From: Prolixibacteraceae bacterium
Lineage (GTDB): Bacteria; Bacteroidota; Bacteroidia; Bacteroidales; Prolixibacteraceae
Assembly: GCA_025355875.1 (NCBI GenBank)
Contig: JANXYV010000212.1
Coordinates: 5,844-69,843, forward strand
Direction of reading: 5' to 3'
Length of the DNA stretch: 64,000 bases
In this document: piece after piece, positions 5,674 to 62,863 of the stretch
How the letters are laid out: each line of letters begins with the position of its first letter
How positions within the stretch are numbered: position 1 is the first letter of the stretch
Notes under the pieces: generated by a model
Database searches by the model: none
Told to the model about the DNA's origin: nothing
Seen by the model: only the letters and a program-made list of their open reading frames with translations
Made by a program: the position numbers and the translations under genes

Positions 5674-5682
5674 ACGCCAAAA

Positions 5683-7104: not shown

Positions 7105-7128
7105 ATCTTTTATTTTTCGTGTTTATAA

Positions 7129-8412: not shown

Positions 8413-8425
8413 AAGGCAGACTTCA

Positions 8426-9757: not shown

Positions 9758-9760
9758 AAT

Positions 9761-44948: not shown

Positions 44949-44962
44949 ATACAAATCCCCGA

Positions 44963-46300
44963 ATGAATTGGAACCAGCTTATATCTACCACCCGGTTGGG
45001 TCAGGAGGAACTTGCCACAGAAGAAAATAAACATAGCAGAACTCAGTTTCAGCGCGATTATGACCGAATCATATTCTCATCCCCCTTCCGGAGGTTGCAG
45101 AACAAAACCCAGGTTTTCCCGCTTCCCGGGAGTGTATTTGTACACAACCGGCTGACCCACAGTCTGGAAGTAGCAAGTGTTGGCCGTTCACTGGGAAGTA
45201 TGTTCCTCGAGAAGTGTGAAACCGAAAAAACGAACATCCAAAACCCGCTTTTTCAGGAAATCGGATCGGTCATTTCAGCGGCGTGCCTGGCGCACGACAT
45301 GGGCAATCCACCTTTCGGACATTCCGGGGAGGATGCCATCGCCCAATTTTTTAACAGAAGCACCGAACCCCGGTTGAGAAATGAACTTAGTGAAGCACAA
45401 TTCCGCGATTTTACGCAGTTCGACGGAAATGCAAATGCTTTTCGGCTATTGAGCCATCAGTTCACCGGTCGTCGGCAGGGAGGTTTTGCACTCACCTATA
45501 CCACTCTGGCCTCCATCGTAAAATATCCCTTTGAGAGTTTGTTGACTGAAAAGCCCAAATTTGGCTTCTTTCAGTCGGAAAAAGATCTTTTTGCCCGGAT
45601 CGCCGGCGAACTGGGATTGATCCAGACAAACGTAAGTCCTGCAAAGTATGTCAGGCACCCATTGGTATTTCTGGTCGAGGCTGCTGACGACATTTGTTAC
45701 CAACTGATGGACCTGGAAGACGCACACAAGCTGAAGATCCATAACTTTGAGGAAACATCCGGTTTGCTTATGCAGTTTTTCGATCAGCAGACAGAAATGA
45801 AACAGATTTTCCGGATAAAGGAAACCCTCGGGCTGGTTGCTGACCCGAACGAACAGATTGCTTATCTGCGCGCTAGCGTGATCGGGAAATTAGTCAAACA
45901 ATGTGTTGAAGTTTTCATTGAAAAACAAGATGAAATTTTAGCCGGTAGTTTTCAGGAAGCCCTGATTGATCATGTTCATCCAACAACCCTGGCAGCACTG
46001 GATGAAATCCAGGAAATCAGCGTCAATAATATTTATAACGACCGCTCGGTGGTCGAAATCGAGATTTCAGGATATCAGATCATTGGCACTTTACTCGAAG
46101 TTTTTATTGATGCGACCCTGAATCCGGAACAAGGGTTCTCAAAAAAACTAATCCAGCTGATGCCCGATCAATATGGCGAGAATCATGAATCAACCTACGA
46201 GAAAGTACAATCGGTCGTTGATTTTGTATCTGGCATGACCGACTTGTACGCGCTCGACTTGTACCGAAAAATTAAAGGCATCAATATTCCGGGAATTTAA
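44963..46300 (+). CDS. dgt: dGTP triphosphohydrolase
   Basis: FQRDYDRIIFS..FRRLQNKTQVF, HNRLTHSLEV, AHDMGNPPFGHSGE, FDGNAN, EAADDICY. Confidence 0.95.
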   Translation: MNWNQLISTTRLGQEELATEENKHSRTQFQRDYDRIIFSSPFRRLQNKTQVFPLPGSVFVHNRLTHSLEVASVGRSLGSMFLEKCETEKTNIQNPLFQEIGSVISAACLAHDMGNPPFGHSGEDAIAQFFNRSTEPRLRNELSEAQFRDFTQFDGNANAFRLLSHQFTGRRQGGFALTYTTLASIVKYPFESLLTEKPKFGFFQSEKDLFARIAGELGLIQTNVSPAKYVRHPLVFLVEAADDICYQLMDLEDAHKLKIHNFEETSGLLMQFFDQQTEMKQIFRIKETLGLVADPNEQIAYLRASVIGKLVKQCVEVFIEKQDEILAGSFQEALIDHVHPTTLAALDEIQEISVNNIYNDRSVVEIEISGYQIIGTLLEVFIDATLNPEQGFSKKLIQLMPDQYGENHESTYEKVQSVVDFVSGMTDLYALDLYRKIKGINIPGI

Positions 46301-46360
46301 TCTTAACCCAATTCATGTGTTGACTTCAAACTCAGCCTGAGAATTCATAAACTAAAAAAA

Positions 46361-46582
46361 ATGAAGACCAAATTTGACCAGTTTGAAAACGACCGCATGA
46401 TCGATGATCCGGTCAATTACAAATGGGGAATCTTCTATTTTAATCCGAAAGACCGCCGGATTGTGGTTCCAAAACGTTCCAGGGTCATGGGATGGACCCT
46501 GAATTTTGCCAATATTTATACATATCTACTCCTTTTCGGACTAATTTTAATTGGATTGATATATGTCTACCTGAACAAATAA
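46361..46582 (+). CDS. DUF5808-like small membrane protein
   Basis: YKWGIFYFNPKDRRIVVPKR..MGWTLNFAN. Confidence 0.75.
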   Translation: MKTKFDQFENDRMIDDPVNYKWGIFYFNPKDRRIVVPKRSRVMGWTLNFANIYTYLLLFGLILIGLIYVYLNK

Positions 46583-46757
46583 ATCGCTGAAGTCCTCGCC
46601 AGACAACACTTTCAGGAATTATCAATAAAATATTCCTGAACGTGAAATGATAAAAATTCTTAATAAACCTAAATTTCAGGTACTTGGCTTTTTTTTATAA
46701 CAACATTTTAACGACATTTATCGTTCTATTTATATTACTCACCAGAAGGAGAAGATT

Positions 46758-47267
46758 ATGGTCGCGGCGCTTAAAATTATTCAGGTTTTTTTGTTGGCAA
46801 CAGTAAAATACGTACTCACATTTCCTTTTGCCATTCTGATTGGACTTAATATTAAGCAGACCATCATTTCAGTTACTTTAGGCGGGATTGTCGGGTTTTT
46901 CTTTTTTTATCATTTCAGTGGTTTTGCCATTCGCAACTTTCATCACTTTAAAACATTCCTGAAGAAACACCTTCCCCTGTCGATTCATATCAGTTACCGC
47001 CGTTTGGCATTCTGGCGCAGAAAACATACTGGCGAACTGGTTTTTAGTCGCCGGAATAGGTTCATTGCTCGTTTCCGTGCCAAATTCGGATTACCCGGAA
47101 TTGTCATTTTGTCGCCGGTTATTTTAAGCATTCCAATTGGTGCCTTTTTACTCCACAAATACTACTCAAAACACAAATTTGCCATGCCCTATATGGTTTT
47201 GTCAATTCTGAGCTGGACCGCTGTTTTTATTGCCTTTGCTCTCATTTTTCCAAACCTCGTGAAATAA
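46758..47267 (+). CDS. Hypothetical membrane protein
   Basis: Several hydrophobic segments, FGLPGIVILSPVILSIPIG. Confidence 0.65.
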   Translation: MVAALKIIQVFLLATVKYVLTFPFAILIGLNIKQTIISVTLGGIVGFFFFYHFSGFAIRNFHHFKTFLKKHLPLSIHISYRRLAFWRRKHTGELVFSRRNRFIARFRAKFGLPGIVILSPVILSIPIGAFLLHKYYSKHKFAMPYMVLSILSWTAVFIAFALIFPNLVK

Positions 47268-47286
47268 AGTCATTTCATTTTTCAGG

Positions 47287-47703
47287 TTAACCATTTTTCA
47301 TATTTTCCTGCACTATCAATCTCAAGCTTTCCTGATTCTGAATAATCAATTCCCGATCGGCATGCGACCAATCGATAGTTTGCCAATTGTCGAAGCTGAA
47401 CCACTGTTCCGCAAGGTGCTCCGTCAGGAAAATTTCTCCGGAAACTATTTCACAGATAAAGGCAGCCAGCCTGATTTGCTTGCTCCCATAGTCAAATTCG
47501 ATCGATTCGATCTGAGATAAAACAGTGACCTTTACCGACAATTCTTCCACAATTTCCCGCTGAATACATTGCTGAGCGGTCTCATCCGGATAAATCTTTC
47601 CTCCGGGAAATTCCCACTGATAGGGATGACTACTTTCCGGACCTCGCTGAACCGCCAGGATTTTGGCATCTTTTAAGATAATGGCACAACATACATCAAT
47701 CAT
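47287..47703 (-). CDS. MutT-like NUDIX hydrolase
   Basis: WEFPGGKIYPDETAQQCIQREIVEEL Nudix box. Confidence 0.88.
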   Translation of the reverse strand: MIDVCCAIILKDAKILAVQRGPESSHPYQWEFPGGKIYPDETAQQCIQREIVEELSVKVTVLSQIESIEFDYGSKQIRLAAFICEIVSGEIFLTEHLAEQWFSFDNWQTIDWSHADRELIIQNQESLRLIVQENMKNG

Positions 47704-48533: not shown

Positions 48534-48606
48534 TGACCCATGGTGTAATTGGCAACACAACTGATTTTGGTTCAGTAGAGTCTAAGTTCGAGCCTTAGTG
48601 GGTCAA
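48534..48606 (+). tRNA. tRNA-Gln(TTG)
   Basis: Acceptor TGACCCA/TGGGTCA, D-arm TGGTGTAATTGGCAACAC, anticodon arm ACTGA-TTTTGGT-TCAGT, T-loop GTTCGAG. Confidence 0.95.
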
Positions 48607-48666
48607 CAAAAAAAAACGATCAATCTTTGCCCCGGCAAATAGATATTTGTTTTACAGCTTGAAAAT

Positions 48667-48739
48667 TGTCCTGTGGTGTAATTGGCAACACGTCTGATTC
48701 TGGATCAGAAGAGTTTAGGTTCGAAACCTAACAGGACAA
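48667..48739 (+). tRNA. tRNA-Gln(CTG)
   Basis: Acceptor TGTCCTG/CAGGACA, anticodon arm TCTGA-TTCTGGA-TCAGA, T-loop GTTCGAA. Confidence 0.95.
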
Positions 48740-48748
48740 CTGAAAATC

Positions 48749-48784
48749 AAAGAGTTGCAAGAGTAAAAACTTGCAACTCTTTTT
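48749..48784 (+). terminator. 13-bp perfect hairpin after the tRNA (terminator or att-associated)
   Basis: AAAGAGTTGCAAG-agtaaaaa-CTTGCAACTCTTT followed by T's. Confidence 0.75.
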
Positions 48785-48948: not shown

Positions 48949-50739
48949 TTACCGATAATTCAGGATTAACTCATTGAGACACTTTCTAACTTGCTCACGA
49001 CAGAGTTGTGCTGCCTCTTTGTTTAAAATATATGGATGAGCAGCTTTACGACGAAAATCTTCATTTATGGCTTCAATTTGTTTTAAATACTGCTGATCAA
49101 GTACTCTTTCTTCAAAGTATCCAAAAATGAAATCTCTAAAATCCATTAGAAGAGGACTTCGTTGTAAAGTTTTGCCATTTATTTCTAATAAAGTGAGTAT
49201 GAAAGACATTTGGCCAAGCGTATAATCAATATCACGTTTTTGAAGTTTCTTGGCAAATTGCCCGGTCTTACTGTCATTCAATTCATTTTTTATTATGGAA
49301 TCCATTTCAGACATTCTCTTAAGTACGTTTTCAGTATAAACGACAAATAACTTACTAAGAAGCTCATTTTCAAGTGCTCGACAATACTGAATAATAAAAG
49401 GTGAATAGTCTTCAGTTTGACTATTAACTATACCATCAAATATCATTTCTGCCTGAGGAAGGAAAATTTGACTTTCCTTTTCTAGACTTTCCCAATTTGT
49501 GAGCCAAGAACAAACAACTGTAATATATTCATTAAGTGATACTTTTGATATTGATGAACTAATCCATTGTTCCATCAAGTTGATTACTCCTTCAACTTGG
49601 TCGTCAGATGCATTATCAGGAATATCCATCAATTTCTTAAGATCGACTATATATTTTGTGAGCGTCTTCACTTCATTTTGTAATTTCGCTATTTCATGAA
49701 CGCTTGCTAAGATGTCTTGATAGTTACTGTAAATAACAGGTTGAGAAAGAACATCATTTTCACTAATAAAACTGTAATCTTTTCCAGAACTCAAATTACA
49801 AGTTGATTCTAATCGTTGTAATGCTATTTGCTGTGTCTCTTTTGAGCTTTCAACGCCCCACCAATTACGTCCTAACTGGTATGCTGAAACAAGAGTTGTA
49901 CCAGAACCCATAAAAGGATCAAGAACTTGATCTCCAGGATTAGATGCTAATTCAATAATTCTTTTTAAAAGTGCTATGGGCTTCTGACCTGAAATTATTG
50001 TGCGTTCGTCTGATTTAATGAGTGTAGGGATATCATCCCATGTAGTACCTAACTCAATTCCTGCATTATCGGATAAATATTGCTTCATACGTGGCAATCC
50101 ACCTTTTGTCGAAAAATATATTCTGTCCTCTTTTTCTAAAGCATCCATTTTGTCCTGAGAAAACCTCCAAGATCGCTTTGTAGGAGGCCTAAACCCACGC
50201 CATGCAAACTGAGCGTTGGGACGGTCAAAGGGAAATGTTAGATCCACCAGCAGAAATTGTCCATGAGGGTCAGAAAGATTATAACGTGATTTTTCATCTG
50301 GCGATAATGGCCTAAAAATAGGATTATAAATCGGCTGAGAGGATTTGTTATAAACAATAAGAATTTCGTTGTCAATCTTAGGTGATCCTTTGCTTGTGAT
50401 ATGTCTGGATTTCCTAACCAATGTTATCTCATATCGAGGTTGGTCTCCAAAAGCTTGATTAATAATCAAGCGAATATCAATTGTTGAAGTTAGAGACCAG
50501 TGGACAAATAAACTTCCCTGTTCGGTCAGAATTCGGTGTATTTGTTGAACATTCTTAGCTACCAATCCAATATATTCATTTTCGCCATCTTTACTATACT
50601 TAAAATTCGGAGAGTTATGCCAACTTTGGATATTCCATGGTGGATCAAAGTAAACCAGCGCAACGGACTGATCAGGTAACCTTTCAAGCAAGCTTAAGGA
50701 ATCACTGTGAAAAATAGCATTTGTTCCAGTTTTTATCAT
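48949..50739 (-). CDS. Beta-class DNA amino-methyltransferase fused to a C-terminal HEPN-like domain
   Basis: DPPW (aa 32-35), QKP..LL.RII, DPFMGSGT (aa 274 onward); coiled coil from about aa 347; ALENELLSK and RRKAAH (aa 563-568). Confidence 0.75.
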   Translation of the reverse strand: MIKTGTNAIFHSDSLSLLERLPDQSVALVYFDPPWNIQSWHNSPNFKYSKDGENEYIGLVAKNVQQIHRILTEQGSLFVHWSLTSTIDIRLIINQAFGDQPRYEITLVRKSRHITSKGSPKIDNEILIVYNKSSQPIYNPIFRPLSPDEKSRYNLSDPHGQFLLVDLTFPFDRPNAQFAWRGFRPPTKRSWRFSQDKMDALEKEDRIYFSTKGGLPRMKQYLSDNAGIELGTTWDDIPTLIKSDERTIISGQKPIALLKRIIELASNPGDQVLDPFMGSGTTLVSAYQLGRNWWGVESSKETQQIALQRLESTCNLSSGKDYSFISENDVLSQPVIYSNYQDILASVHEIAKLQNEVKTLTKYIVDLKKLMDIPDNASDDQVEGVINLMEQWISSSISKVSLNEYITVVCSWLTNWESLEKESQIFLPQAEMIFDGIVNSQTEDYSPFIIQYCRALENELLSKLFVVYTENVLKRMSEMDSIIKNELNDSKTGQFAKKLQKRDIDYTLGQMSFILTLLEINGKTLQRSPLLMDFRDFIFGYFEERVLDQQYLKQIEAINEDFRRKAAHPYILNKEAAQLCREQVRKCLNELILNYR

Positions 50740-50804
50740 TTTAGTTTTTATCAGTAAAACTATTAATTAGGCAGAATATATTTTCGTAATCATAGGAATA
50801 CCTT

Positions 50805-53498
50805 TCAAACGAAATTTACAACGTTTGATGAAACTAATCCCCTAAAGCTGCTGTTCTTTGCAACTTTATCATGTGGAAGTAAAGCATATTTCCATTGCTT
50901 ACCGCCAAACTCCTTGATATATTCATTTGCATATTCACAATATTTAAGAGCTGCCTTTGTTTTTGCTTTTACTTCTTCACTGCTAATTTCGTTGGCAGCT
51001 TTAGTTTCTATCATATAAATATAATCAGCAGTTTCAGCAATAAAATCAGGTTGGTAGGTTTGGCCTTTGTGGTTCCAATAGATTCTGAATTGATATAATG
51101 ATGGTCTGAGCCATTTCAATACTTCAGAATCATTTTCTAAAATAAATGAAAAGGTTTGTTCTGTCCGGCTATCAAATTTATACTCCGGATGAGCTGTTTT
51201 TTTGAATCCTCTGAAAATATATTTCTGTATTTGAGACGGTTGCATTGTTTCATCAGTGTATTCTCTATAACCATTGCTAATCATAGTAAAATTCCAATCT
51301 TCAATTTTTACAAATGGGAATACTTTTGGCTTCTGGAAATCCGATTGCACTATTTCAAAATGCGCAGGACTTATCATCATTTGATTATATATTTTTTCGG
51401 CAATAAGCTTTTTCCACTGTCTAATCACTTGCCTTATATCTGCATTATCTTCTAATGTTTCTTCGATAGCGTTGATTGCCTGATTGCAAAGTTTAGCCTG
51501 TAAATCGGCTGTTTCGTAATCTATTTCCGCAAAATTGTTGAGTTCTACCATTAACATCTCCAATGGCTTTCTAATGTTATTTGATTTTGTTATTTCAAGT
51601 GTATCAACCTTTTTATCTGTAAGTCCATAAATCAGAATTTCTTCTTTTAATTTTTGATAATGAAAACTTGAAGTGTCTAAATCAAAATCATGAAATACCG
51701 GATAGGCTGTGCCTTGTTGCAGAACCATTCTGGGAATAGCTATTGTTTGTTGCTTAAATTCATTTACAATTTGGTTATAAATGATTTCAGCCTCTTCAAC
51801 AACTTTAGGATTTTCTATTACTGAAAAAATATCTTGTGGCCGGGAATATATTTCAAGTTTAATTGCCGCAATTACTTCTCTTTTTATTTCTTCTTTTTGA
51901 GCATCATCAATTTTGTTTACCTGAGTGTTTAATGCAAGTGTTGGAAGATAGTTTATAATTAATCTTTTAGCATCTAACTGATTCAGTTTTTGTTGCTTGT
52001 TTACATCATTTGATTTTTGAATGATTGCCTTTTCTTCATCCATCTTTTTATTGATTGTCGCTGTGACTTCAACGGGAACTTGTTTAGGTTCATTGGGATC
52101 AACAAAAACTTCAATTAGTTTTACTTTGTTTAAAACGGAGTTTGGATTTTTGGCTTCATTCAATATACTTTCGTAATTATCGTGTGCTACTATTGTTAGT
52201 CGATCCAATTTATCTATTCCGGTCCTTTCACCATTGAAAGGCAAACGAAGTCCTCTACCAATGGTTTGTTCTATTAATATTGCAGAGTTGGCTGCATTTA
52301 ATGGACAGATAGTATAAAGGTTATTTATATCCCAACCTTCTTTTAGCATAAAAACATGGATCACAATTTCAATAGGATTGTCTGTATCTTCTAAAGAAAT
52401 AAATAAACTCTCAACATCCTCATCGTTTTTACTGGTGCTGTCAATTTGCAATACTTTATCTATGTATGCTCCTTCTAAAAACTGCGGTGAATTGATAAAT
52501 TCATAAAGCCGTTTAGCATGATCGGTATTTTTTGCAGCAATAAGTGTAAGTGGTTTTACAAGCTTTTTATTTTCCTGCTTGTGGTACATATCCAATTCTA
52601 CCTTAATGTTTTCATGCAGGTTGATTGCATCTTCTATTTTAATTAGTTCAATTTCTTCTGGAGCTTTCCCTTTGTGATCAAAATCTTTCCGGGTAGCTAT
52701 TGCAGGAGCTTTAATATACAAACCTTCTTTTAAGGCAATGGCTAAAGAATACTCATAAACAACATTTTTAAACTTGTTGTTCTTTTCATCAATTGGAGTG
52801 GCAGTTAATTCTATACCTAAAATTGGTTTTAACTCGTTGATTGCCTCTTTACTTTTATCTGCATGATAACGGTGTGCTTCATCCATCAGGATTACCAAGT
52901 CTTTCAAATTGCTTAGATATTCCCAATAGCTTTGCCCTAAATACTCAGATAACCGTTTAATCCGAGGAGTCATATTTTTGCCACCTTCTTTTACTGGTTT
53001 AGTTTCTTTTGCAAATTTTGAAACGTTAAAAATATTAATCCTTATTTCGGTTTCACTAAATAACGAACTGACCTGATTGTAATTATCACCAGTAATGATT
53101 ACAGGCTTATTGTGCACAAACTCCGCTATACCACTAAAAACGTATTTTGAATAGCTGCTATTCCCAAAATCTTCAATCAATTTGTTGTAGATTGTAAGAT
53201 TGGGTGCCAATACAAAAAAATTTCTGAACCCTTTCTCCAAATACAAATAAGCAATACAAGCTCCCATTAATCGGGTTTTACCCACGCCAGTAGCAATACT
53301 GTAACAAATGGATACAAACTCTCTTTCGAAATCAGTGCAGGTTGGGTAAAGAGCCTGGACTTTTGCCAGTTCTGATTTAAGGTCTACATCTTTTTCTAAT
53401 TCTAACTCATCGGCTAGATGAACAAGTATATCTAATGAATCTTTTAATGGTTGTCGAAGTGATAGGCGCTGTTTTATATTTTCTGCGATCAGGTTCAT
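50805..53498 (-). CDS. res: Type III restriction enzyme Res subunit (SF2 helicase + PD-(D/E)XK nuclease)
   Basis: ATGVGKT, DEAH, TAT, LKEGWD, EQTIGRGLR, C-terminal YQPDF...IETK. Confidence 0.9.
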   Translation of the reverse strand: MNLIAENIKQRLSLRQPLKDSLDILVHLADELELEKDVDLKSELAKVQALYPTCTDFEREFVSICYSIATGVGKTRLMGACIAYLYLEKGFRNFFVLAPNLTIYNKLIEDFGNSSYSKYVFSGIAEFVHNKPVIITGDNYNQVSSLFSETEIRINIFNVSKFAKETKPVKEGGKNMTPRIKRLSEYLGQSYWEYLSNLKDLVILMDEAHRYHADKSKEAINELKPILGIELTATPIDEKNNKFKNVVYEYSLAIALKEGLYIKAPAIATRKDFDHKGKAPEEIELIKIEDAINLHENIKVELDMYHKQENKKLVKPLTLIAAKNTDHAKRLYEFINSPQFLEGAYIDKVLQIDSTSKNDEDVESLFISLEDTDNPIEIVIHVFMLKEGWDINNLYTICPLNAANSAILIEQTIGRGLRLPFNGERTGIDKLDRLTIVAHDNYESILNEAKNPNSVLNKVKLIEVFVDPNEPKQVPVEVTATINKKMDEEKAIIQKSNDVNKQQKLNQLDAKRLIINYLPTLALNTQVNKIDDAQKEEIKREVIAAIKLEIYSRPQDIFSVIENPKVVEEAEIIYNQIVNEFKQQTIAIPRMVLQQGTAYPVFHDFDLDTSSFHYQKLKEEILIYGLTDKKVDTLEITKSNNIRKPLEMLMVELNNFAEIDYETADLQAKLCNQAINAIEETLEDNADIRQVIRQWKKLIAEKIYNQMMISPAHFEIVQSDFQKPKVFPFVKIEDWNFTMISNGYREYTDETMQPSQIQKYIFRGFKKTAHPEYKFDSRTEQTFSFILENDSEVLKWLRPSLYQFRIYWNHKGQTYQPDFIAETADYIYMIETKAANEISSEEVKAKTKAALKYCEYANEYIKEFGGKQWKYALLPHDKVAKNSSFRGLVSSNVVNFV

Positions 53499-53517
53499 TT
53501 TATTTATGGCTTTATGG

Positions 53518-55188
53518 TTAGAAAAGTGTAGGTTGGTTATCGTCTTCTATTTTTTTTGAGGATTTGGATTTTGATAGCTTAATTGTGGGTTCCTCTATGG
53601 TTAATAAATCGTCTACCACTGCATTGTTTTCTGCTTCATCATGCGGAAAATTTACAATATTTAGGGAATAATCATCTTTCCCGAACTCACATCTTCCATA
53701 AAGCATTTGTGGGATTTTTTTGATTGTAATGTTTGATCTTCTCGATTTACATTCTGCCTTAAATCCCTTGCAGCATATCAATAAACTTTCGTTGGATAAC
53801 ATTTCTTCTGAAAGCCTGTCTAACATTTCAACCGTAATAAATTGGGTTGTGGTGAAAATGAAATCGTTCTCGCTGCTGTTACCTTGTTTCCAGTAAATAC
53901 TCTCATGAGGTAAATAATGGAATCCTTCCTGTTTAGCCATTGCTGCTGCCAACATATTGGCATTGTATTCCGGATTGATAATATCACATCCGTATTTATC
54001 TTTTTGAATTAATGATGGTGCAAGTGTGTAGAATTTAAAACCACCACCACCCTTCCATTCAACTGCCTTGCTAATACCGCCCTGCTCTCCATCAACAACT
54101 TGTTTCATACGTGGGAAACAATGGGTTCTGGCATGTTCTCCCAATTCGATACCTATATATTTTCTGCCCATTTTATGCGCTACGGCTGCGGAAGTACCAC
54201 TTCCTAGAAAACTATCAAGAACAATATCATTTTCCCCGGAACCAATCTTAAAGATTTTATGAATTAATCTTTCAGGTTTTGGTGTTTCAAAAACCTCATT
54301 ATTTAAAAAAGCATTAACTTCCCTTTTTGCTTCTTGATTATCACCAACCTCATCTCGAAGCCAAATTGACATAGGTACGATACCCTGTTGAATCTCTAAT
54401 AAAAATTGTTTAATTCTAGGTTTATTCTTTCCATCTTTCCCAAACCAAATTCGATTCTCAGATAGCCATTTACCATATGTACTTGAAGAAGGAGCCCACT
54501 GCCTCCCCGCAGGTGGATAATGAGTTATCCCACTTGGTGTTATTATAGGGTAGGAATGACCAGCTGCTTTAGTTTTTGATGTCATGTCTCCACTAGACCA
54601 ATCCCCGCGAGGATCATTATCTGGGTTTGAAAAGGTCGAATCTTCATCTTTCCGAGGCAATAGATATAACTTAAGTCTCAATTTATCTTTTGCAAATACT
54701 AAAACATAATCATGATTTGCACTTATGAAATTTTCATCATTTTGAGGAGAAAACTTTTTTTGCCAGATACATGTAGCTACAAAATTATTCCTGCCAAAAA
54801 TTTCATCGCACAAAACCCTTAAATATGAATATTCGTTATCATCTATACTAATCCATATACTTCCATCATCTCTTAATAAGTTCCGAAGCAAATTCAAGCG
54901 AGGTTTTATCAAATTTAACCATGTACTATGTTCGACTCCGTCATCATAATGATCAAATGCGCTTCCAGTATTGTATGGAGGGTCAATATATATGCACTTA
55001 ATTTTTCCAGCGTAATCCTGTTCTAGGGCTTTTAGAGCTAGTAGGTTGTCGCCGTGGATGAGCATGTTTTCAGTTCTTGGGTCACCGTAACTGTATTCTG
55101 GGTTCTCGATAAGGATTCTGGGTTCGAGTTTGGGTTCTTCGCCTTTGCCAATCCAAGTGAGTTCGAGTTTTTGTAAATGTTTTGCCAT
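53518..55188 (-). CDS. mod: Type III m6A methyltransferase Mod subunit
   Basis: KLELTWIGK, GDNLLAL, IYIDPPYNTG, TPKPERL, DSFLGSGT, GGGFKFY. Confidence 0.92.
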   Translation of the reverse strand: MAKHLQKLELTWIGKGEEPKLEPRILIENPEYSYGDPRTENMLIHGDNLLALKALEQDYAGKIKCIYIDPPYNTGSAFDHYDDGVEHSTWLNLIKPRLNLLRNLLRDDGSIWISIDDNEYSYLRVLCDEIFGRNNFVATCIWQKKFSPQNDENFISANHDYVLVFAKDKLRLKLYLLPRKDEDSTFSNPDNDPRGDWSSGDMTSKTKAAGHSYPIITPSGITHYPPAGRQWAPSSSTYGKWLSENRIWFGKDGKNKPRIKQFLLEIQQGIVPMSIWLRDEVGDNQEAKREVNAFLNNEVFETPKPERLIHKIFKIGSGENDIVLDSFLGSGTSAAVAHKMGRKYIGIELGEHARTHCFPRMKQVVDGEQGGISKAVEWKGGGGFKFYTLAPSLIQKDKYGCDIINPEYNANMLAAAMAKQEGFHYLPHESIYWKQGNSSENDFIFTTTQFITVEMLDRLSEEMLSNESLLICCKGFKAECKSRRSNITIKKIPQMLYGRCEFGKDDYSLNIVNFPHDEAENNAVVDDLLTIEEPTIKLSKSKSSKKIEDDNQPTLF

Positions 55189-55203
55189 TGTTTTATTTTC
55201 TAC

Positions 55204-56967
55204 CTAAATTTTCCATTTCCAAATCTGTAATGCTTGTTGGGCGAGGTCTTTACTTCTTAATTCAATTGCTGCAATGTTCCATGTTACTGTGCGCTTTTTA
55301 ACATCTCGGGCCAATGCACTTATGTCAGTGTAAGCAACTTGCTTTTCAATATAAGGTTTCTGCCCAAATGAACTATTTGCTGGTTGGCTATTCAGACAAA
55401 GATTACCTATAGTATTTGTAATAGTTGGTAAGCTATAATGTAAAGCATCAGCTACTAAATATGTTTTCCAATGATCATTAAGGGTTTGTGGTAAGATATG
55501 CTCAATAGTATATATGGTAGAATAATCAGGATACTCACCAAATGGTTGCATTGATTTATCCAACTCCTGTAAAACATGTCGTGAAAAATTTAATTCTCTT
55601 GAATTGTAAAGTTCTTTAGTCGTGAAAGCATCTTCAAAAATCTGATCAGCAACCCATAATTGCTCAGTTTGAATTTGCTTTTGAAATGCTCTTACCTTGT
55701 CCGGTTCATTAACAATCCTATCTAATAGTGATGGAAAGAAAGTGTCGTATTTTGTCACTGACAGACTAGTTATTTTTCTCCGAATTAGAAGTACATAAGT
55801 TTCATGCAGGATCTCAATAGCTTCTTGTTCTGTGATTGAACTATGCTCTAATGTTTTAAGCAATCCCATTAGAAATGGATAAATAGATGTCATGTTGGTT
55901 GCATTAATTGCAATCAACAATTTCTTTATATCTGGGTTAGCAGGTGGATATTGAATTGGCTTTAAAATTTGATTATATACATTGGTGTAATCAAATACCT
56001 TCTCTAATGTTTGAGTTGCAGTAACAGCAGATAGTTTCTTGTTTTTGATTTTAAAGTGAACGTACATTCTTCGTTCTTTTCCAACACGTTTTTTCTCACC
56101 CATTGAAAATAAATCTCGAAGATATTCTTCAAAGTTTGCTTCTCCTACTGCACTTCTAGCTGCAAGCCATTTTTCGTTATGTAATTTTTCGTGTTCATTG
56201 GTAATGTCATTTGTCAGAGGACGAAAGATATAATTGCATAAAAGCTCCGATGCTGATAGTGGCATACCTGCATCATTCAAACTTTCAAAAATTGCTTGCG
56301 CATCATCTTTTGTTTCATCCAATGGAATCCAAACAATTTTTAGCGATTTGAGTATAGCCTGACACCATTGCCAAAGTGTTGGAACATCCATATTTCGTAG
56401 ATATTTTTGAGCATACTTCACAAAAGCATCAATTTTATTTTCGAGAGGATTATAAAGTAGCTGATCTTCTCCGAGATGAGGACTATTAGGGTTTGAATTG
56501 AAAACCGTTTTGAATGTTGGCAACCTGTCACCTTTTGTGCTAAAGACTTTCAGTTTAAAATAATCATCACTTCCTGATACATTATTCTTCAGGTATTTAT
56601 CTAACTCAGAAATATATTTCTGAGCTTCAGGGGAAAGATGTGCCTTGCCTTCTAATAATTTTCTAAGCACGGCTAAAAGCAAATAAACTGTTGTAATTCT
56701 TTGCTGCCCATCGATCACTAAAAATTTTTTCAATGATGGATGTTGACTGATTTTCTCAAGGATCACGATAGGGCCAAAGAAATGTTCCTCATCTTCAAAA
56801 TTATTGTTTGAAACATTTTCAATTACTTCCGTCTGAATATCTTCAAAAAGTTTCTTCCATTGACGTTGCTCCCATGCATATCCTCTTTGAAAGAAAGGTA
56901 TTTCAAAACGGACACCAATGTTAAACATCTCCTCAAAATTTCGGTTGATTACATTTCCTGTTGGCAT
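55204..56967 (-). CDS. DUF262 + DUF1524 (GmrSD/SspE-like) nuclease
   Basis: IPFFQRGYAW, IDGQQR, IFESLNDAG, C-terminal HNH-like IEHILPQ...IGNL...N. Confidence 0.88.
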   Translation of the reverse strand: MPTGNVINRNFEEMFNIGVRFEIPFFQRGYAWEQRQWKKLFEDIQTEVIENVSNNNFEDEEHFFGPIVILEKISQHPSLKKFLVIDGQQRITTVYLLLAVLRKLLEGKAHLSPEAQKYISELDKYLKNNVSGSDDYFKLKVFSTKGDRLPTFKTVFNSNPNSPHLGEDQLLYNPLENKIDAFVKYAQKYLRNMDVPTLWQWCQAILKSLKIVWIPLDETKDDAQAIFESLNDAGMPLSASELLCNYIFRPLTNDITNEHEKLHNEKWLAARSAVGEANFEEYLRDLFSMGEKKRVGKERRMYVHFKIKNKKLSAVTATQTLEKVFDYTNVYNQILKPIQYPPANPDIKKLLIAINATNMTSIYPFLMGLLKTLEHSSITEQEAIEILHETYVLLIRRKITSLSVTKYDTFFPSLLDRIVNEPDKVRAFQKQIQTEQLWVADQIFEDAFTTKELYNSRELNFSRHVLQELDKSMQPFGEYPDYSTIYTIEHILPQTLNDHWKTYLVADALHYSLPTITNTIGNLCLNSQPANSSFGQKPYIEKQVAYTDISALARDVKKRTVTWNIAAIELRSKDLAQQALQIWKWKI

Positions 56968-56971
56968 ATTG

Positions 56972-59893
56972 TTAAATTATTTTAAATCTTATTGTGAATA
57001 ATTCGGTTTCGGTTGTATTTTGATTTAAGCGTTGTTCAATTTCATCCAAAAAGTTGTCCTTTCGTTTTTCAATATCGTCCTCATTCTGATATTGGTTATA
57101 ACGTTTATCAGCTAATTTTTTCTCAAGATCTTTAATGATGCGTTGCTCCTTTACTTTCTTTTCAAGGCTCAATAGTTTTCTTGCTTCTGTTTTCCGGGTT
57201 TTAATTTCCTTATCCAGTTCCTTTATTTCAAACTTTATACTGTTTCTTACATCTTCACTCCACTTTTCTAATTTGTCAACTTCCTCATTAAAAAAAGCAT
57301 GGTTTCGGTTGTGATTCTCTTCAATGATACCAATTTGCTGAGACAAATAATTCTCTTTAAATCGCTGCTTTAACTTTTCACTCAATTGTAAAGATTCAGA
57401 AGATATTTTTGCATCCAGAGAGAATAATCGTTGGCATTGCTCTGGCTGTAACGTATTCCCATCATCATCGAAAGCTGCAAATAATATATGGTCTTCCATT
57501 TCAAAACTTGATATGGAAATTTGCTTTGCCTGCAACCAACCTTGTTTACCTTTCAAGTTTTCAAGTATTGATATTTTCTTTTCGCTGTTTGTCAAATTAA
57601 AAATCAACTCCTGAATAGGTACCCCTTCTTTCTTACAAAATTCAATAACCTTTTGTGCTAATGGATGACCAACTCTATAGAGATTTTCATTTGATTGCAA
57701 TTCTTCAGCTACATGTCTTTCCCCAATGTTTTTCTTACCCAGCTTATATGGTCCATTATGAATAAGTTCTCCTTTAAATGGATTTTGATTGAGGTAAAAG
57801 CTGTTTTCGGAAGTGTTAAAGGTGGCAAAGGGTTGCAAAAAATATTTAGTAAGTTGCCATAACCAATTTTCAAACTTATTTAGATATTCGCTGCTTTGCT
57901 GTAAGTTTATTTTAAGTTTCTCATGCACTTCTTCATCAAAATTCTCTAAGAGCTTTTTCCTGGTAATGTCAATACCTATTTCAATTTCAGGTTCCATTTC
58001 CTTTTGAAGTGCATCAAATGCAAGCTGTATTGCTTCGATAGTTCTGCAAGTTTGATAGATTTGAACAATTCGTTTTTCAAAGTCTACACCACTCTCAATT
58101 GCGCCTAGTACTTCATCACTTGCCCCGAATACTCCACTGAAAAGTTGAAATTTTTCATCAAGCAATTGATATACTCTTTGATCAGCTGCATTGGTGTTAT
58201 TCAAGAAATTTACAACTACAACATCATACTTTTGTCCGTACCGATGACATCTACCAATGCGTTGTTCAATACGCTGCGGATTCCAAGGAAGGTCATAATT
58301 CACCACCAGAGAACAGAACTGTAAATTGATTCCTTCAGCTGCGGCTTCAGTTGCAATCATGATGGTAGCAGTATCACGGAAATAATCAACTAATGCAGCC
58401 CTTTTATCAGCCGTTTTAGAGCCTGTTATCCTATCTGTGCCTCTATGAGTATTAATCCATGCCTGATAGATCTGATTGCTCTTTGGGTCATTATTACTGC
58501 CATTAAATAGAACAATTTCATTCTTATAACCTCTAGCTTCCAAAGTATTTTTTAGATACTCCTGAGTTCTTATGCTTTCAGTAAAGATAATTGCTTTACG
58601 GTTTGCTTTTAACTCTGTTAGTTTTTGGAAAGCCTTATCTAAAGCGGTGAATAGTACTTCTCCCTTAGAATTAATGTGAATTGATTTGGCTAATTTTTTA
58701 AACTCATTGAGGGCCTCAATTTCTTGTTTGATTTCTAAAATTTCATCAGCAGAATAGATTCTATCTGCTTTGGCTATTTCCTCATCTTCTTCCTCTTCAT
58801 CAATCCATTCTTCTTGCTGCTCTTCAAAAGTTTCATAATTGTCATTAAATACCTCATTCACTGATTGCAATGAAGTTTCTTGTTTGATAAGTACGTTTCC
58901 CAACTTATCAGCCAATCCTTGTAATGTACCTGAAATAGCATAGGTAGATGATGCCAATAATTTGCGTAGAATTAAAGTCATGAGAGTTCGCTGACCAGGG
59001 GGCAAAGCATATAAGTTTGGCCTTTGTAAATACTCCGAAACTAAATCATAAAGGCGTTGTTCATCCTCACGTGGTGTAAACTCCTGCACAATGCAAGTTC
59101 TGTTGGTATAGTTAATATATTCCAACACCTGCCTTCTAAGTGTACGCTTACATACCGGCTCTAATCTTCTCTTTAGTTCATCAAAGTTTTTTTCTTCTGA
59201 AAGTCTTGTGTATTGCGTTTTAAAACTCTTTAAATCACCAAAGGCATATTCATCAATGATACTTACTAAACCATACAATTCTAATAATGAATTCTGCAAT
59301 GGTGTAGCTGTCAATAGAATCTTTGGAGAGTGGGCAACAGCATCTTTTATAGCTTTAGCAATTTTGTTTGTGGTCTTATATACATTTCGTAAGCGATGGG
59401 CTTCATCAACAACTACTAAATCCCAATCAACCTTACTTATATAAACTGCTTTACTTTTTATAAAATGGTATGAACAAATAACAATCTTTCCATCTTGTTG
59501 AAATGGATTGAAGTTTGCCTTTTGAACTTCTTCATTAAAAGATTTTGCTTCGAGAATTATTGAGGGTAAGAAGAATTTATCAGCAATTTCCTGATTCCAT
59601 TGTTTGCGTAAATTCGCAGGTGCAATGATTAAAATTCTACGTTTACGTTCTGCCCATTTCTGAGAAATAACAATACCAGCTTCAATAGTTTTTCCTAAAC
59701 CGACTTCATCAGCCAATACCGCTCCTTTTGATAGTGGTGACTGAAAAGCAAATAACGCTGCATCTATCTGGTGTGGATTTAGATCAACCTGTGCATCTGA
59801 TAGAGATGCAGTAAATTTCTCTAAACTATTTGACGAATACCTTTTGGTTAATTCATAAGCGAAATATTTTGCATGGTATGGTGTTATGCTCAC
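56972..59893 (-). CDS. SNF2/RapA-family ATPase associated with the type III RM locus
   Basis: PHQ, LADEVGLGKT, VDEAH, LLTATP, IFTES, AEGINLQ, NYDLPWNP.RIEQRIGR.HR; C-terminal coiled coil. GTG start. Confidence 0.9.
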   Translation of the reverse strand: MSITPYHAKYFAYELTKRYSSNSLEKFTASLSDAQVDLNPHQIDAALFAFQSPLSKGAVLADEVGLGKTIEAGIVISQKWAERKRRILIIAPANLRKQWNQEIADKFFLPSIILEAKSFNEEVQKANFNPFQQDGKIVICSYHFIKSKAVYISKVDWDLVVVDEAHRLRNVYKTTNKIAKAIKDAVAHSPKILLTATPLQNSLLELYGLVSIIDEYAFGDLKSFKTQYTRLSEEKNFDELKRRLEPVCKRTLRRQVLEYINYTNRTCIVQEFTPREDEQRLYDLVSEYLQRPNLYALPPGQRTLMTLILRKLLASSTYAISGTLQGLADKLGNVLIKQETSLQSVNEVFNDNYETFEEQQEEWIDEEEEDEEIAKADRIYSADEILEIKQEIEALNEFKKLAKSIHINSKGEVLFTALDKAFQKLTELKANRKAIIFTESIRTQEYLKNTLEARGYKNEIVLFNGSNNDPKSNQIYQAWINTHRGTDRITGSKTADKRAALVDYFRDTATIMIATEAAAEGINLQFCSLVVNYDLPWNPQRIEQRIGRCHRYGQKYDVVVVNFLNNTNAADQRVYQLLDEKFQLFSGVFGASDEVLGAIESGVDFEKRIVQIYQTCRTIEAIQLAFDALQKEMEPEIEIGIDITRKKLLENFDEEVHEKLKINLQQSSEYLNKFENWLWQLTKYFLQPFATFNTSENSFYLNQNPFKGELIHNGPYKLGKKNIGERHVAEELQSNENLYRVGHPLAQKVIEFCKKEGVPIQELIFNLTNSEKKISILENLKGKQGWLQAKQISISSFEMEDHILFAAFDDDGNTLQPEQCQRLFSLDAKISSESLQLSEKLKQRFKENYLSQQIGIIEENHNRNHAFFNEEVDKLEKWSEDVRNSIKFEIKELDKEIKTRKTEARKLLSLEKKVKEQRIIKDLEKKLADKRYNQYQNEDDIEKRKDNFLDEIEQRLNQNTTETELFTIRFKII

Positions 59894-60017
59894 TTTTTCT
59901 TGAAGTTTTTATAGGCAATTTTTAATGCTCCCTAAATTTTTGACTTCTTTCATTCACTTAGTTTGAGGGTTCTCCAAAGGTCAACTATTAAATGGAATTT
60001 AACTTGTCAATTATAGC

Positions 60018-60025
60018 CAAATATA
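60018..60025 (-). promoter_or_regulatory. Candidate -7 element for the SNF2-RM operon
   Basis: TATATTTG about 125 nt upstream of the SNF2 start. The region is AT-rich, so a chance match is possible. Confidence 0.4.
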
Positions 60026-60185
60026 GCGTATTGTTAATTAACATTACTCTATTGGTATTGTGGATTTTTTATATGTCTAATTTATGATTATAATTTACGA
60101 AATCGGATGTTTAGAATTCTAAATATCTCATTTATCCTTCAAGATATTATGAGGAAATAATCCTAATTATTACGTTGTTCTAGTT

Positions 60186-61085
60186 TTATACTAATTTCCT
60201 AATGAGATTGACAAGTTCATCAATGTTCTCATGAACAGTTTCTATTGGCACGTTTCGACTTTTATTAAATCCTATTTTGTTTATAGGATATTTAAGTTTA
60301 AAACTTATAAAGCTTATCCATTCATCAACAATATTAATTGGCTTATGCTGCAAATAGAATCGATATTTTTCTTCAGATTGAAAATTTATCAAATGCCTTC
60401 CTCCACTAATATTTAACAAGCTAATATGTTTTTTGTCGCCTTCAGTTGAAAATACTTTTAATGAAAAGCCTTTATCTTTATTTGTATCATAGTAAATGTG
60501 TCCAGCATTAGCGCGATTTGTTTTTTCAACCATATCAACATCATTTAACTTTGAAAGTAGCTCTTTAATAAATGAATTTGAATTAATAAAATCTTTGCTA
60601 ACAGGCTTCCTTGATGTATCATTTATTGTATATATTGTTTCGTCGATCAGATTCGTCAAATATTTACACGAAAGCTTTATTTGATTATTTTGGATTGTAT
60701 TATAGATACTGTTAATGAAGGTTTTGATTTCCTCTAATGATAGGTCTGGCAAATGTTCTTTTTTCCCAAATATAGAATATACTTTTACACCATCCTTTTC
60801 ATATAATATTTTAAACCTATTAAATTGTTCGAGATTAATACCACACTCAACCTCGATATATCCTATTTTATCACCGAAGGAATTATAAACCACGAAATCT
60901 GGTCGAGAACCTTCTTCATTTTTCACTGGAAAAATTATAGAATCAGCATTTAATTTAAATTTCTCTAAAAACCAATTATGAAATACATCAAACATCTGCA
61001 GGTGAAATAAAGCCAGATTAATCCTATTCTCAGGTTTTGAAATGTCTTCTTTGACAAATATGTTAAAAATTACATCATCTTGCAT
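60186..61085 (-). CDS. Hypothetical protein, putative N-terminal PD-(D/E)XK nuclease
   Basis: RPDFVVY...GYIEVE...LEQFNRF pattern. Confidence 0.55.
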   Translation of the reverse strand: MQDDVIFNIFVKEDISKPENRINLALFHLQMFDVFHNWFLEKFKLNADSIIFPVKNEEGSRPDFVVYNSFGDKIGYIEVECGINLEQFNRFKILYEKDGVKVYSIFGKKEHLPDLSLEEIKTFINSIYNTIQNNQIKLSCKYLTNLIDETIYTINDTSRKPVSKDFINSNSFIKELLSKLNDVDMVEKTNRANAGHIYYDTNKDKGFSLKVFSTEGDKKHISLLNISGGRHLINFQSEEKYRFYLQHKPINIVDEWISFISFKLKYPINKIGFNKSRNVPIETVHENIDELVNLIRKLV

Positions 61086-61113
61086 TTTGATATATTTATA
61101 TGAAAAAATGCTA

Positions 61114-61791
61114 TTATTTTAAATCTTTAATATCAATCAATACATTTATTTTATTTCTACATTTTGAGTTTAATGCAAAAACTTTCTCAACTGTTCTAAT
61201 ATGCCCAATCCATTCATCCTTATTTGTTATTATATCTACATCTGGAGCATTACAGAAATAAATAAATATTATATATGCATTTAAATGATTTAATTCCTTT
61301 AAATAATATAAATGAGCTAGTCTATTTGCATATTGGTAGAATGGCATTTGCCAATAGGATTTTGTGTTATCTGAATAGAATTGTTTTGTATTATCAATAG
61401 ATTTTTTGATTAAATCAATTGATAGTTGCGAAGTTGCCCCAGTGTTGTAATCTACAGCTTCCTCAATATGAGCTTTAGCCTCAATCAAAAAATATTTTTT
61501 TGTATTTGTCTTTCCTAATCCATCCCATCTTGGTCCACTTATTGGCCAAAAATCATTCAATGATACAATGAGTTTATTTTTATCAATGCCTAATTTATCA
61601 AGAAATTCATTGTCATAGTATTCAGCAAAATCATCCGCCAAAGTTGGAGATAACCATTCGATAATCTCATTTTCACTAACAATTTTATTATCAAATAGAA
61701 TTTTGTTTAGTATCTCAGGGTTGTCATTAATAAGCTTCCGCAACCAAAATTCACTTCTAGTTGTAATTAGTGGTCTTTTTCTTCTTGGCAT
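61114..61791 (-). CDS. Hypothetical protein, putative PD-(D/E)XK nuclease
   Basis: FWPISGPRWDGLG...FLIEAKAH...YQYANRL. Confidence 0.55.
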   Translation of the reverse strand: MPRRKRPLITTRSEFWLRKLINDNPEILNKILFDNKIVSENEIIEWLSPTLADDFAEYYDNEFLDKLGIDKNKLIVSLNDFWPISGPRWDGLGKTNTKKYFLIEAKAHIEEAVDYNTGATSQLSIDLIKKSIDNTKQFYSDNTKSYWQMPFYQYANRLAHLYYLKELNHLNAYIIFIYFCNAPDVDIITNKDEWIGHIRTVEKVFALNSKCRNKINVLIDIKDLK

Positions 61792-61903
61792 AGTTTACTA
61801 TTTTTCAATGAGGTTATATAATAGCATAAAAGTAAGTATGCAACATGAAAATTACTTTCATATTATTTTATAAAATCAGAAAGTCCTATTTATTAACAGT
61901 TGC

Positions 61904-62713
61904 CTATTTTCTTAGAATTTCTCTAATTGATTCAATAGTATTCTCAATTTGCAAAGTATCATTATCGTCAATTTCTTCTATACCAATTAAATCACACATT
62001 GTTTTTCCTAGTGGACTAATTCCCAGAGAGGAAGCACTCATCGAAATTCCGCCTCCCGTTTGCTTTAGTAGCTGTTTATTATAAATATCCATTAACTCAA
62101 AATAGAAATCTTGATATTTACCTAAATCTGCTTTATCTTTAAATGAAATCATCCAGTTTTGGGTACTTAAATCTTCTATAGTTGAAAAGTATGCCAAAAT
62201 AGCTATTTGTCTATAGCTTAGCTGCTCTAAAATTCTTAACAAAGTATTTCCCTTTTCAAAATTTATGGAATTATCAAAACTTAGGTTTGCTAAGAGATTT
62301 GAATAACATCTTATTTTCTTTTCTTCATATTCGTTTCGTACTTTTAATAATGTTCCTTCTAAAATGGTCTCCGATTTAGACCTGTCATTTTCTTGTACTT
62401 CGAAAAAATCATCATTTCTTACTTTTTTCCCAGTGTCTATAATTTTAGCAATTTTTTCAAGGGCAAGAGTATAAGTTGCCCCAACTCTTGCCTGCTCTCT
62501 TGGACCCATAATCTTTTCAGATATCTCAGTACCAACTTTTTTGAAAGTAGCTCCAACAAGTGGACCAACAATTGCACCAGCAATTGCTCCAACGGGGCCA
62601 GCAATCGCAAGTCCAATAGTTGAACCAGCAACACTGCCTCCAATTTCTGAGCCTTTGTCAATTATTATTTTTAATTTTTTAAATTTCACACTACTTTTTT
62701 TCTTTTCTGTCAA
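61904..62713 (-). CDS. Hypothetical protein with N-terminal glycine zipper, Abi-alpha/DUF4393-like
   Basis: GGSVAGSTIGLAIAGPVGAIAGAIVG; EEKKIRCYSNLLAN..., ILEQLSYRQIAIL; C-terminal ISPLGK. Start uncertain (TTG 62713, GTG 62689, or 62806). Confidence 0.5.
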   Translation of the reverse strand: MTEKKKSSVKFKKLKIIIDKGSEIGGSVAGSTIGLAIAGPVGAIAGAIVGPLVGATFKKVGTEISEKIMGPREQARVGATYTLALEKIAKIIDTGKKVRNDDFFEVQENDRSKSETILEGTLLKVRNEYEEKKIRCYSNLLANLSFDNSINFEKGNTLLRILEQLSYRQIAILAYFSTIEDLSTQNWMISFKDKADLGKYQDFYFELMDIYNKQLLKQTGGGISMSASSLGISPLGKTMCDLIGIEEIDDNDTLQIENTIESIREILRK

Positions 62714-62863
62714 ATTATTGAATACTATTTTTTTATTATTGCCACGGTTGGAAGCTAAATGCAGAGGATGATTGCGGGTTTCGACAAGGTTGAATCGCAC
62801 CGCCACTCTAGTGTATTACGAACTTTGTTGTCCACATGAAAATGGCAATTAATAATATTGACA

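Follow-up and report, generated by a model that had tools for sequence, protein, structure and literature searches.

A DrmD-like SNF2 ATPase gene associated with type III restriction-modification genes and exchangeable cargo in a Prolixibacteraceae bacterium

Introduction

The locus described here raises the question of whether five adjacent, co-oriented genes form one defence system or several. It lies at positions 48949–59893 of a 64-kb stretch of DNA from a Prolixibacteraceae bacterium (contig JANXYV010000212.1; "the window" below means this whole stretch) and encodes, in order, an SNF2 ATPase, a GmrSD-like protein, the Mod and Res proteins of a type III restriction-modification (RM) system, and a DNA methyltransferase (MTase) with an additional helical domain. 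We conclude that SNF2-Mod-Res is probably a conserved, widespread, and apparently unnamed three-gene restriction system, of which the window holds one mosaic copy that carries GmrSD.

In textbooks, type III enzymes are machines of two subunits. A short asymmetric site on host DNA is methylated on one strand by Mod, and incoming DNA without methylation is cut by Mod-Res; in the classical enzymes these two components suffice, and cleavage needs two inversely oriented unmethylated sites. The conserved SNF2 partner described below raises doubt as to whether two components suffice in this lineage.

Results and Discussion

Gene content of the locus

The five genes of the locus, with lengths in amino acids (aa) and spacings in nucleotides (nt), are as follows.

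56972–59893, minus strand: SNF2 gene, 973 aa, GTG start; first core gene
55204–56967, minus strand: GmrSD gene, 587 aa, starting 4 nt after the SNF2 stop; cargo between SNF2 and Mod
53518–55188, minus strand: type III Mod gene, 556 aa; core gene
50805–53498, minus strand: type III Res gene, 897 aa, 19-nt gap to Mod; core gene
48949–50739, minus strand: fifth gene (MTase plus helical domain), 596 aa; neighbour outside the conserved core

A first-pass annotation of this DNA had described five intact, co-oriented open reading frames (ORFs) with gaps of 4, 15, 19, and 65 nt, which the ORF list of the window bears out. The domains that it had named (SNF2, GmrSD-like, Mod, Res, and MTase) were likewise found by Pfam, PADLOC, and NCBIfam, with catalytic motifs readable in the translations.

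The SNF2 protein is composed of SNF2-rel_dom and Helicase_C (Pfam), and its best specific models are those of DrmD (PADLOC PDLC02619, 4e-209). The NCBIfam model DISARM_DrmD_b (NF038318) gave 705 bits against a cut-off of 950, over profile positions 21–658 of 868, and NF038317 reached 264 bits, where the cut-off is 610. The helicase motifs (GLGKT, DEAH, TATP, and QRIGRCHRYGQ) are all intact. The C-terminal third, which comprises a long coiled coil and an alpha/beta domain, has no match to DrmD_b; an AlphaFold 2 model of aa 600–973 was of fair quality (pLDDT 82).

Mod is a beta-class MTase of the N6-adenine type, in which motif IV (DPPY) precedes motif I (FLGSGT), and it matched Pfam N6_N4_Mtase (4.5e-47) and PADLOC MTase_III (PDLC03636; 1.1e-187). 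Res combines a superfamily 2 (SF2) helicase (ResIII, 2.9e-21) with a C-terminal PD-(D/E)xK nuclease domain (PADLOC REase_III PDLC03648, 1e-146), and its motifs GVGKT, DEAH, QTIGRGLR, and PDF...IETK can be read in the translation. The match of Mod to a Mod-type model, with Res directly downstream, places the pair among type III RM systems.

Recurrence of the SNF2-Mod-Res trio

When one genome per species was scanned for the SNF2 protein, 32 loci were obtained, nearly all in Bacteroidota metagenome-assembled genomes, at 55–90% identity. All window proteins were compared with these loci (numbered with the prefix L) by tblastn, and 19 of the loci had enough downstream sequence to be evaluated. Mod and Res followed SNF2, at 75–87% identity, in 17 of the 19, the exceptions being a decayed locus (L014) and a locus with other partners (L021). 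Mod begins 0–2 nt past the SNF2 stop in five loci that are free of cargo (L008, L012, L016, L017, and L024).

We also searched 401 Bacteroidota genomes with Res and SNF2 and fetched 20 regions. Behind SNF2 genes of 59–64% identity, the same Mod/Res family follows (L044 and L060–L065). At 53–58% identity (L051–L054), the partners are another type III pair (Mod PDLC03634, 7.6e-215; Res PDLC03647, 1e-286, with RE_endonuc), and at 45–53% (L055–L058) a third pair, composed of a Mod (PDLC03646) and a Res (PDLC03654) of ~1100 aa each. A Mod of the PDLC03646 type is also present in L059, where the contig stops before Res. The SNF2 protein of L056, the one scanned from the 45–53% group, matched the DrmD model PDLC02619 at ~1e-204. 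The type III partners of orthologous SNF2 genes, which were found at 45–93% identity across the searches, belong to three different Mod/Res families.

The trio extends beyond Bacteroidota. SNF2 orthologues of 45–54% identity occurred in 50 plasmid records, and all four plasmids that we opened (Rhizobium, Salmonella IncFIB, E. coli IncF, and Deinococcus) showed the order SNF2-(cargo)-MTase-(cargo)-DEAD/DEAH helicase, preceded in three by a helix-turn-helix (HTH) gene. Among complete E. coli genomes, 258 of 5426 carried a relative, and the trio was present in each of the three opened. The HTH gene is lacking in the Deinococcus plasmid and degraded in E. coli NCTC86. The labels assigned by the Prokaryotic Genome Annotation Pipeline (PGAP) are generic only. 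Conjugative IncF plasmids and E. coli chromosomes commonly carry the trio, which can therefore be tested directly in laboratory strains and matters for the uptake of plasmids and the host range of phages.

Quantification of pairwise identities in 20 complete trios revealed that SNF2 and Res co-vary (r = 0.87, Mantel p ~5e-4); for Mod, the swapping of its recognition region leaves a weak correlation (r = 0.30). The genes around the trio differ from locus to locus and the trio is constant. Its range takes in the close loci, more distant Bacteroidota, plasmids of Proteobacteria and Deinococcus, and the chromosomes of E. coli. Full-text literature searches returned no paper that describes or names a DrmD-like SNF2 protein together with type III Mod and Res.

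The first-pass annotation had considered the five genes together to be the best candidate for an undescribed system. An apparently unnamed system does stand, as the conserved SNF2-Mod-Res trio, and the unit is not five genes. A neighbourhood comparison, as it had proposed, showed that the trio co-occurs and that GmrSD and the fifth gene do not; judged by co-occurrence, part of the test that it had set for a single five-gene unit, the five genes do not hold together, with the window GmrSD in only 2 of the 17 close intact loci (L006 and L010, 83–85% identity) and the fifth gene in none of the 17, where tblastn gave only cross-matches to Mod.

Two further arrangements were observed. In L007 (9684–10004) and eight other loci, and in L066–L068 and L071, the start of SNF2 is overlapped by a small gene of the HTH_3 kind (controller-protein/CapH-like); the window shows no remnant of this upstream gene, which is present in 9 related loci. 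In L021, SNF2 is followed by a 600-aa protein without family match, a 94-aa ORF, Abi_2, and proteins of 196 aa and 760 aa, the latter without matches, and the locus adjoins a primase gene (DUF3987/BT4734); here the same motor may have acquired other partners.

Mosaic structure of Mod and Res

The SNF2 and GmrSD proteins of the window are 82–87% identical to the close group of loci, whereas Res is only ~61% identical to a group that is 83% identical among itself. The difference is unevenly spread, as the first ~240 aa of Res are 76–96% identical to relatives such as L010 and the remainder (50805–52780, aa ~240–897) 33–73%, while for the relatives identity is 60–93% throughout. In Mod, aa ~120–360, the target-recognition region, are only 20–30% identical to L010, with flanks at 61–83%. 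Exchange has thus affected the specificity region of Mod and the greater part of Res, and the identity profile points to a recombination break inside the Res gene of the window.

GmrSD and the variable slot

The GmrSD protein carries GmrSD_N (3.6e-35, aa 15–248; DUF262) and GmrSD_C (2.6e-18, aa 439–577; DUF1524) in one chain, with the motifs VIDGQQRITT and IEHILPQ intact, and it matched the PADLOC models Orf5 (4.7e-82) and HEC-06 (6.2e-69, full length). A DUF262 domain with DGQQR and a DUF1524 His-Me/HNH nuclease in a single chain identify it as a type IV enzyme of the GmrSD type. The locus combines an enzyme for unmodified DNA (type III) and one for modified DNA (GmrSD) in one operon, as the first-pass annotation had stated. 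Such layered logic has been described before, for BREX with BrxU and for Hma and type I RM systems that harbour embedded GmrSD-like genes (bioRxiv 10.1101/2024.01.29.577857).

In related loci, the position between SNF2 and Mod is either empty or filled by at least seven other unrelated gene sets. The cargo types identified are listed below.

HigB-like toxin with an HTH/IrrE-M78 protein
Schlafen AlbA_2/HATPase_c_4 protein
PLD (NgoFVII-like) nuclease
Bro-N protein (PADLOC PDC-S13)
RhuM (PDC-S05)
HNH_5 protein
distant GmrSD (L013)
AAA_15 with AIPR/AbiU, and Abi, in more distant loci
IetA with IetS, in an E. coli chromosome

Cargo in related loci also matches HEC-01A, PDC-S05, PDC-S06, and PDC-S13, and several slot proteins have no family match at all. 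Cargo in this slot always lies directly behind SNF2 and in the same orientation. In distant loci, a second slot between Mod and Res holds YhcG/DUF1016, Schlafen, or AAA_21/HEC-01A. GmrSD-type cargo has been captured independently several times, namely in the lineage of the window, L006, and L010, in L013, in L061, and in the Rhizobium plasmid, where a DUF262 gene lies between Mod and Res. From the turnover of the slot and this repeated capture, it follows that the window GmrSD is exchangeable cargo and no fixed subunit. The slot would be a ready-made place for finding new defence genes.

Two further loci bear on the slot. In E. coli, a unit of SNF2, AAA ATPase, and S8 peptidase genes is nested in an SNF2-(cargo)-MTase-helicase locus adjoining tRNA-Phe and an integrase. 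L046 is the only clear case in which cargo and a type III pair have been kept in the absence of the motor.

The fifth gene

The fifth protein consists of a beta-class DNA MTase (aa 1–~310; Pfam N6_N4_Mtase at aa 26–306; motifs DPPW and DPFMGSGT), a coiled coil, and an all-helical domain (aa ~420–596). The first-pass annotation had labelled it MTase/HEPN, of which the MTase part is supported by Pfam. The helical domain (48949–49680) has the Rx4-6H motif in an all-alpha setting by which HEPN domains are recognized: R563-x4-H568 (RxKAAH), together with E457-N-E459, is invariant in 43 sequences, and the model is all-helical (pLDDT 89.9). A Pfam HEPN family was matched by none of the 43 homologues at E ≤ 1, a PDB sequence profile search with the domain returned nothing, and Foldseek gave no accepted match (best E 0.39), small helical bundles being hard for such methods. 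A HEPN identity is a guess at the level of the motif.

The family comprises ~60 full-length relatives, all named simply "DNA modification methylase". The C-terminal ~180 aa, i.e., the helical domain, are fused to two unrelated MTase classes, beta N6_N4 (~600 aa) and gamma N6_Mtase/Eco57I (PF02384/PF07669; ~740 aa). In cyanobacteria the homologues are solitary among housekeeping genes. Most likely, the fifth gene is an autonomous fusion of a methyltransferase and an effector; it abuts the operon and may be expressed by read-through from it.

A related genome (L040) carries the fifth gene (94% identity) beside Res in the same tRNA-Gln/NUDIX/dGTPase/YgjP neighbourhood. This island is 95% identical in DNA to the window, with flanks at ~70%, and because it is the same island, the pairing is not independent co-occurrence. 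In L040 (5770–9935), an IS21 insertion (Mu-transposase_C/IstB) has cut Res to aa 342–897 and removed SNF2, GmrSD, and Mod. In Phormidium tenue (L043, 7761–11198), the fifth-gene homologue has an AAA_15/SMC_N fragment of 67 aa on one side and an AAA_15/AAA_21 ATPase of 444 aa on the other, as though it had entered an ABC-ATPase gene or become coupled to one.

Comparison with known systems

Compared with classical type III RM (EcoP1I and EcoP15I, Mod2Res), the window shares a beta-class Mod upstream of an SF2/PD-(D/E)xK Res and a variable Mod recognition region. Its lineage adds a conserved DrmD-like SNF2 gene before Mod, which co-varies with Res, and the trio has built-in slots that accept unrelated defence genes.

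Class 1 DISARM is alike in that an SNF2 protein, to which the window protein is closest (DrmD), is followed by an adenine MTase and a helicase-nuclease, with self/non-self discrimination based on methylation. The window differs in lacking DrmA/DrmB and the PLD protein DrmC and in having a type III Mod in place of DrmMI; a PLD domain is found in none of the five proteins, and no DrmMI-type model is the best match of any of them. DUF1998 (PF09369) had no match in the whole 5.18-Mb genome, in a search where control genomes were positive. With this absence and with SNF2 below both DrmD equivalog cut-offs, DISARM was rejected, in agreement with the first-pass annotation. That annotation had also excluded BREX, and we reach the same conclusion, since neither PglZ nor BrxC occurs among the five proteins or their neighbours. 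No BREX core component is the best PADLOC match of any of the five, and the only BREX models that match are those of the BrxHI/BrxHII helicases, to the SNF2 core. The sole PglZ-domain ORF of the genome lies on another contig (G000:C77:69056-69634, 524 aa); its size presumably marks a PorX-type regulator rather than BREX.

ARMADA (ArmA SNF2, ArmB MTase, ArmC YprA helicase-nuclease, and ArmD) follows the same logic of SNF2, MTase, and helicase-nuclease; its DrmD/RapA-like ArmA is essential, and it is carried in tRNA-targeting islands (bioRxiv 10.1101/2025.09.15.676423; PMC13463889). The window has a type III Res as its effector, where ARMADA has a YprA helicase (DUF1998) with a Vsr nuclease; a UvrD-like ArmD is lacking, and the MTase is a beta-class Mod, not PglX-like. 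ARMADA was rejected, as the DUF1998 of the ArmC type is absent from the genome.

Hma was rejected as well. HmaA resembles the SNF2 protein only in the helicase core (4e-52, compared with 4e-209 for DrmD), and there is no NOV_C domain; HmaC is not among the 7 PADLOC matches of Res or among the 25 of 64 matches listed for Mod, and HmaB is not among the PADLOC matches listed for the locus proteins. A study of embedded defence genes (bioRxiv 10.1101/2024.01.29.577857) offers a parallel in a GmrSD-like gene nested, co-oriented, in a methylation-based multi-gene system, but the host frame of the window, SNF2 plus type III RM, is one that the study left unanalysed.

In ietHAS (Liu-DS4), a DrmD-like SNF2 gene likewise stands directly upstream of a cargo module, which there is IetA/IetS and here GmrSD; the paper tested three genes and never mentions "type III" (PMC13069673). 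The one link to MADS (mad1-8) is the PGAP name "MAD1" on the HTH gene upstream of the E. coli SNF2 orthologue, whose Salmonella plasmid equivalent is annotated only as a generic HTH protein. SNF2 is never mentioned for MADS, and its MTase, mad2, recognizes a bipartite site (bioRxiv 10.1101/2023.03.30.534895). MADS was rejected, having no SNF2 and a different MTase, and the HTH gene is missing from the window.

Role of the SNF2 ATPase and alternative readings

The analysis shows which genes are present, that their motifs are intact, that synteny is conserved, that SNF2 and Res co-vary, that cargo turns over, and that the locus is a mosaic within an island; all activities are inferred. The window Mod would methylate host sites and Mod-Res would cut unmethylated DNA, and GmrSD would independently cut modified-base phage DNA that escapes the type III enzyme, as is established for GmrSD and HEC-06. 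We lean towards a role for the SNF2 ATPase as a third functional component in the restriction arm, by analogy with DrmD in class 1 DISARM and ArmA in ARMADA. It may translocate at the expense of ATP to clear or remodel protein-covered invading DNA, or it may drive or load Mod-Res, and it would be dispensable for methylation. In class 1 DISARM, deletion of drmD and drmMI nearly abolishes protection against one phage (bioRxiv 10.1101/2021.12.28.474362), and in ARMADA, Walker mutants of ArmA abolish defence (bioRxiv 10.1101/2025.09.15.676423). If true, a motor subunit that spans lineages would alter the view of long-range DNA communication or of access to protein-coated phage DNA, and would connect the mechanism of type III RM with DISARM and ARMADA.

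Several points weigh against a three-component system with an SNF2 motor. Its role in the trio is argued from analogy, and classical type III enzymes work without an extra motor (PMC4490356). A Foldseek search of the SNF2 C-terminal region against the PDB gave nothing below E = 0.4; because no structural relative appeared, the "RapA/DrmD-like architecture" of the protein derives solely from hidden Markov model alignment, and a dead-nuclease domain like that of RapA/BrxHII is not supported. In L046 (genome G298, 5270–11141), the order is HigB-IrrE-Mod-Res, with a Res of 53% identity and the SNF2 gene missing upstream; L021 (12965–18775) has SNF2 (60% identity) without detectable Mod or Res; the loci L014 and L050 are decayed; and a sister Res clade at 41–43% identity (L048 and L049) is a plain Mod-Res pair. 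Absences in the 401-genome search are soft, as two candidates were scored per genome. Moreover, ietHAS suggests that an SNF2 protein can also serve cargo, which blurs the separation of core and cargo.

This last point is the starting point of an alternative in which SNF2 acts as a hub, serving the type III enzyme and at the same time licensing or restraining the slot gene, so that the activity or toxicity of GmrSD would depend on SNF2. The spacing of 4 nt between SNF2 and GmrSD and the fixed position and orientation of cargo behind SNF2 are as it would predict, and the E. coli SNF2-AAA ATPase-S8 peptidase unit inside SNF2-(cargo)-Mod-Res fits it too. The DrmD-like SNF2 protein of ietHAS is required for IetAS defence, as K65A and D165A in ietH abolish it, and ietH restrains toxicity, its mutation making the system toxic (PMC13069673), although that construct may come from another locus type than the E. 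coli one inspected here. HEC-06, which is GmrSD-like, defends when cloned on its own (bioRxiv 10.1101/2024.01.29.577857). Moreover, the cargo types (toxin-antitoxin pairs, nucleases, and ATPases) have unrelated mechanisms, and a single hub would have to address them all; the slot between Mod and Res accepts cargo as well. We regard a hub of this kind as unlikely. A broader version, in which SNF2-Mod-Res is an ancient, phylum-spanning class of ATP-dependent restriction with SNF2 as an integral third subunit and with the operon as a frame that gates its cargo, is similarly doubtful; one DNA-surveying motor would then feed both methylation-sensitive and modification-dependent nucleases.

The other two readings pull in opposite directions, one joining all five genes and one separating even the trio. 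A layered five-gene machine, as proposed in the first-pass annotation, would deal with unmodified DNA, modified DNA, and, through an abortive HEPN back-up, RM inhibition, possibly under coordination by SNF2. Co-orientation, short gaps, a terminator only after the fifth gene, and the contiguity of Res and the fifth gene in L040 speak for it. Set against these are the sporadic GmrSD and absent fifth gene in the close loci, the shared ancestry of the L040 island, the solitary cyanobacterial homologues, and a HEPN label that Pfam, PDB sequence search, and Foldseek leave unsupported; in the collections searched, the five-gene set was not found beyond this island lineage. We consider such a machine very improbable. 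Mere co-location, in which SNF2 is a self-sufficient defence or repair gene that lies near RM genes only because islands accumulate defence genes, would account for L021 and L046, and single-gene SNF2 defences such as HmaA exist (PMC11232893). Against it stand a gene order and 0–2 nt spacing that recur over at least four phyla and three Mod/Res families, the co-variation of SNF2 and Res, and the persistence of the trio while flanking genes change, and we hold it to be highly unlikely.

Genomic setting of the locus

Other features around the five genes are given below.

60010–60037, minus strand: sigma-70-like promoter match (TTAACA-16-TATAAT, 11/12), ~115 nt upstream of the SNF2 start
48749–48782, both strands: bidirectional terminator-like hairpin with a 13-bp stem, ending the tRNA-Gln pair (plus strand) and, after the fifth gene, the operon (minus strand)
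48534–48740, plus strand: two tRNA-Gln genes (TTG and CTG) at the edge of the low-GC island

The promoter match is the best of the region and a candidate for the operon promoter, although as evidence it is weak, because Bacteroidota promoters deviate from the sigma-70 consensus. A hairpin scan found no terminator-like site on the minus strand between the five genes. The GC fraction drops from 0.43–0.46 in the flank to 0.33–0.36 across the operon and 0.27 further on, the drop starting after the tRNA-Gln pair. No att-type direct repeat of the tRNA-Gln 3' end was found in the window; the contig ends 81 nt past the window end, so that the far border of the island and any integrase are out of view. 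The element is sporadic, as 4 of 41 genomes related to that of the window carry the SNF2 gene. Probably, the locus is a defence island that was gained by horizontal transfer at tRNA-Gln and holds three separable things, namely the trio, the GmrSD cargo, and the independent fifth gene. Among phage genomes, a single 4.5-kb fragment matched and nothing else, and a phage-borne system was rejected on this ground.

Upstream of the operon, four further minus-strand ORFs (60186–63925; 299, 225, 300, and 353 aa; 27–30% GC) have no significant Pfam match, one showing a weak Abi_alpha similarity and one being a glycine-zipper/transmembrane protein; they are probably more island cargo. Genes for a YgjP-like metallopeptidase, a dGTPase-like HD protein, and a NUDIX protein (44238–47703) flank the tRNA-Gln pair, and because they are conserved in L040 at 54–83% protein identity, they belong to the core genome and not to the island.

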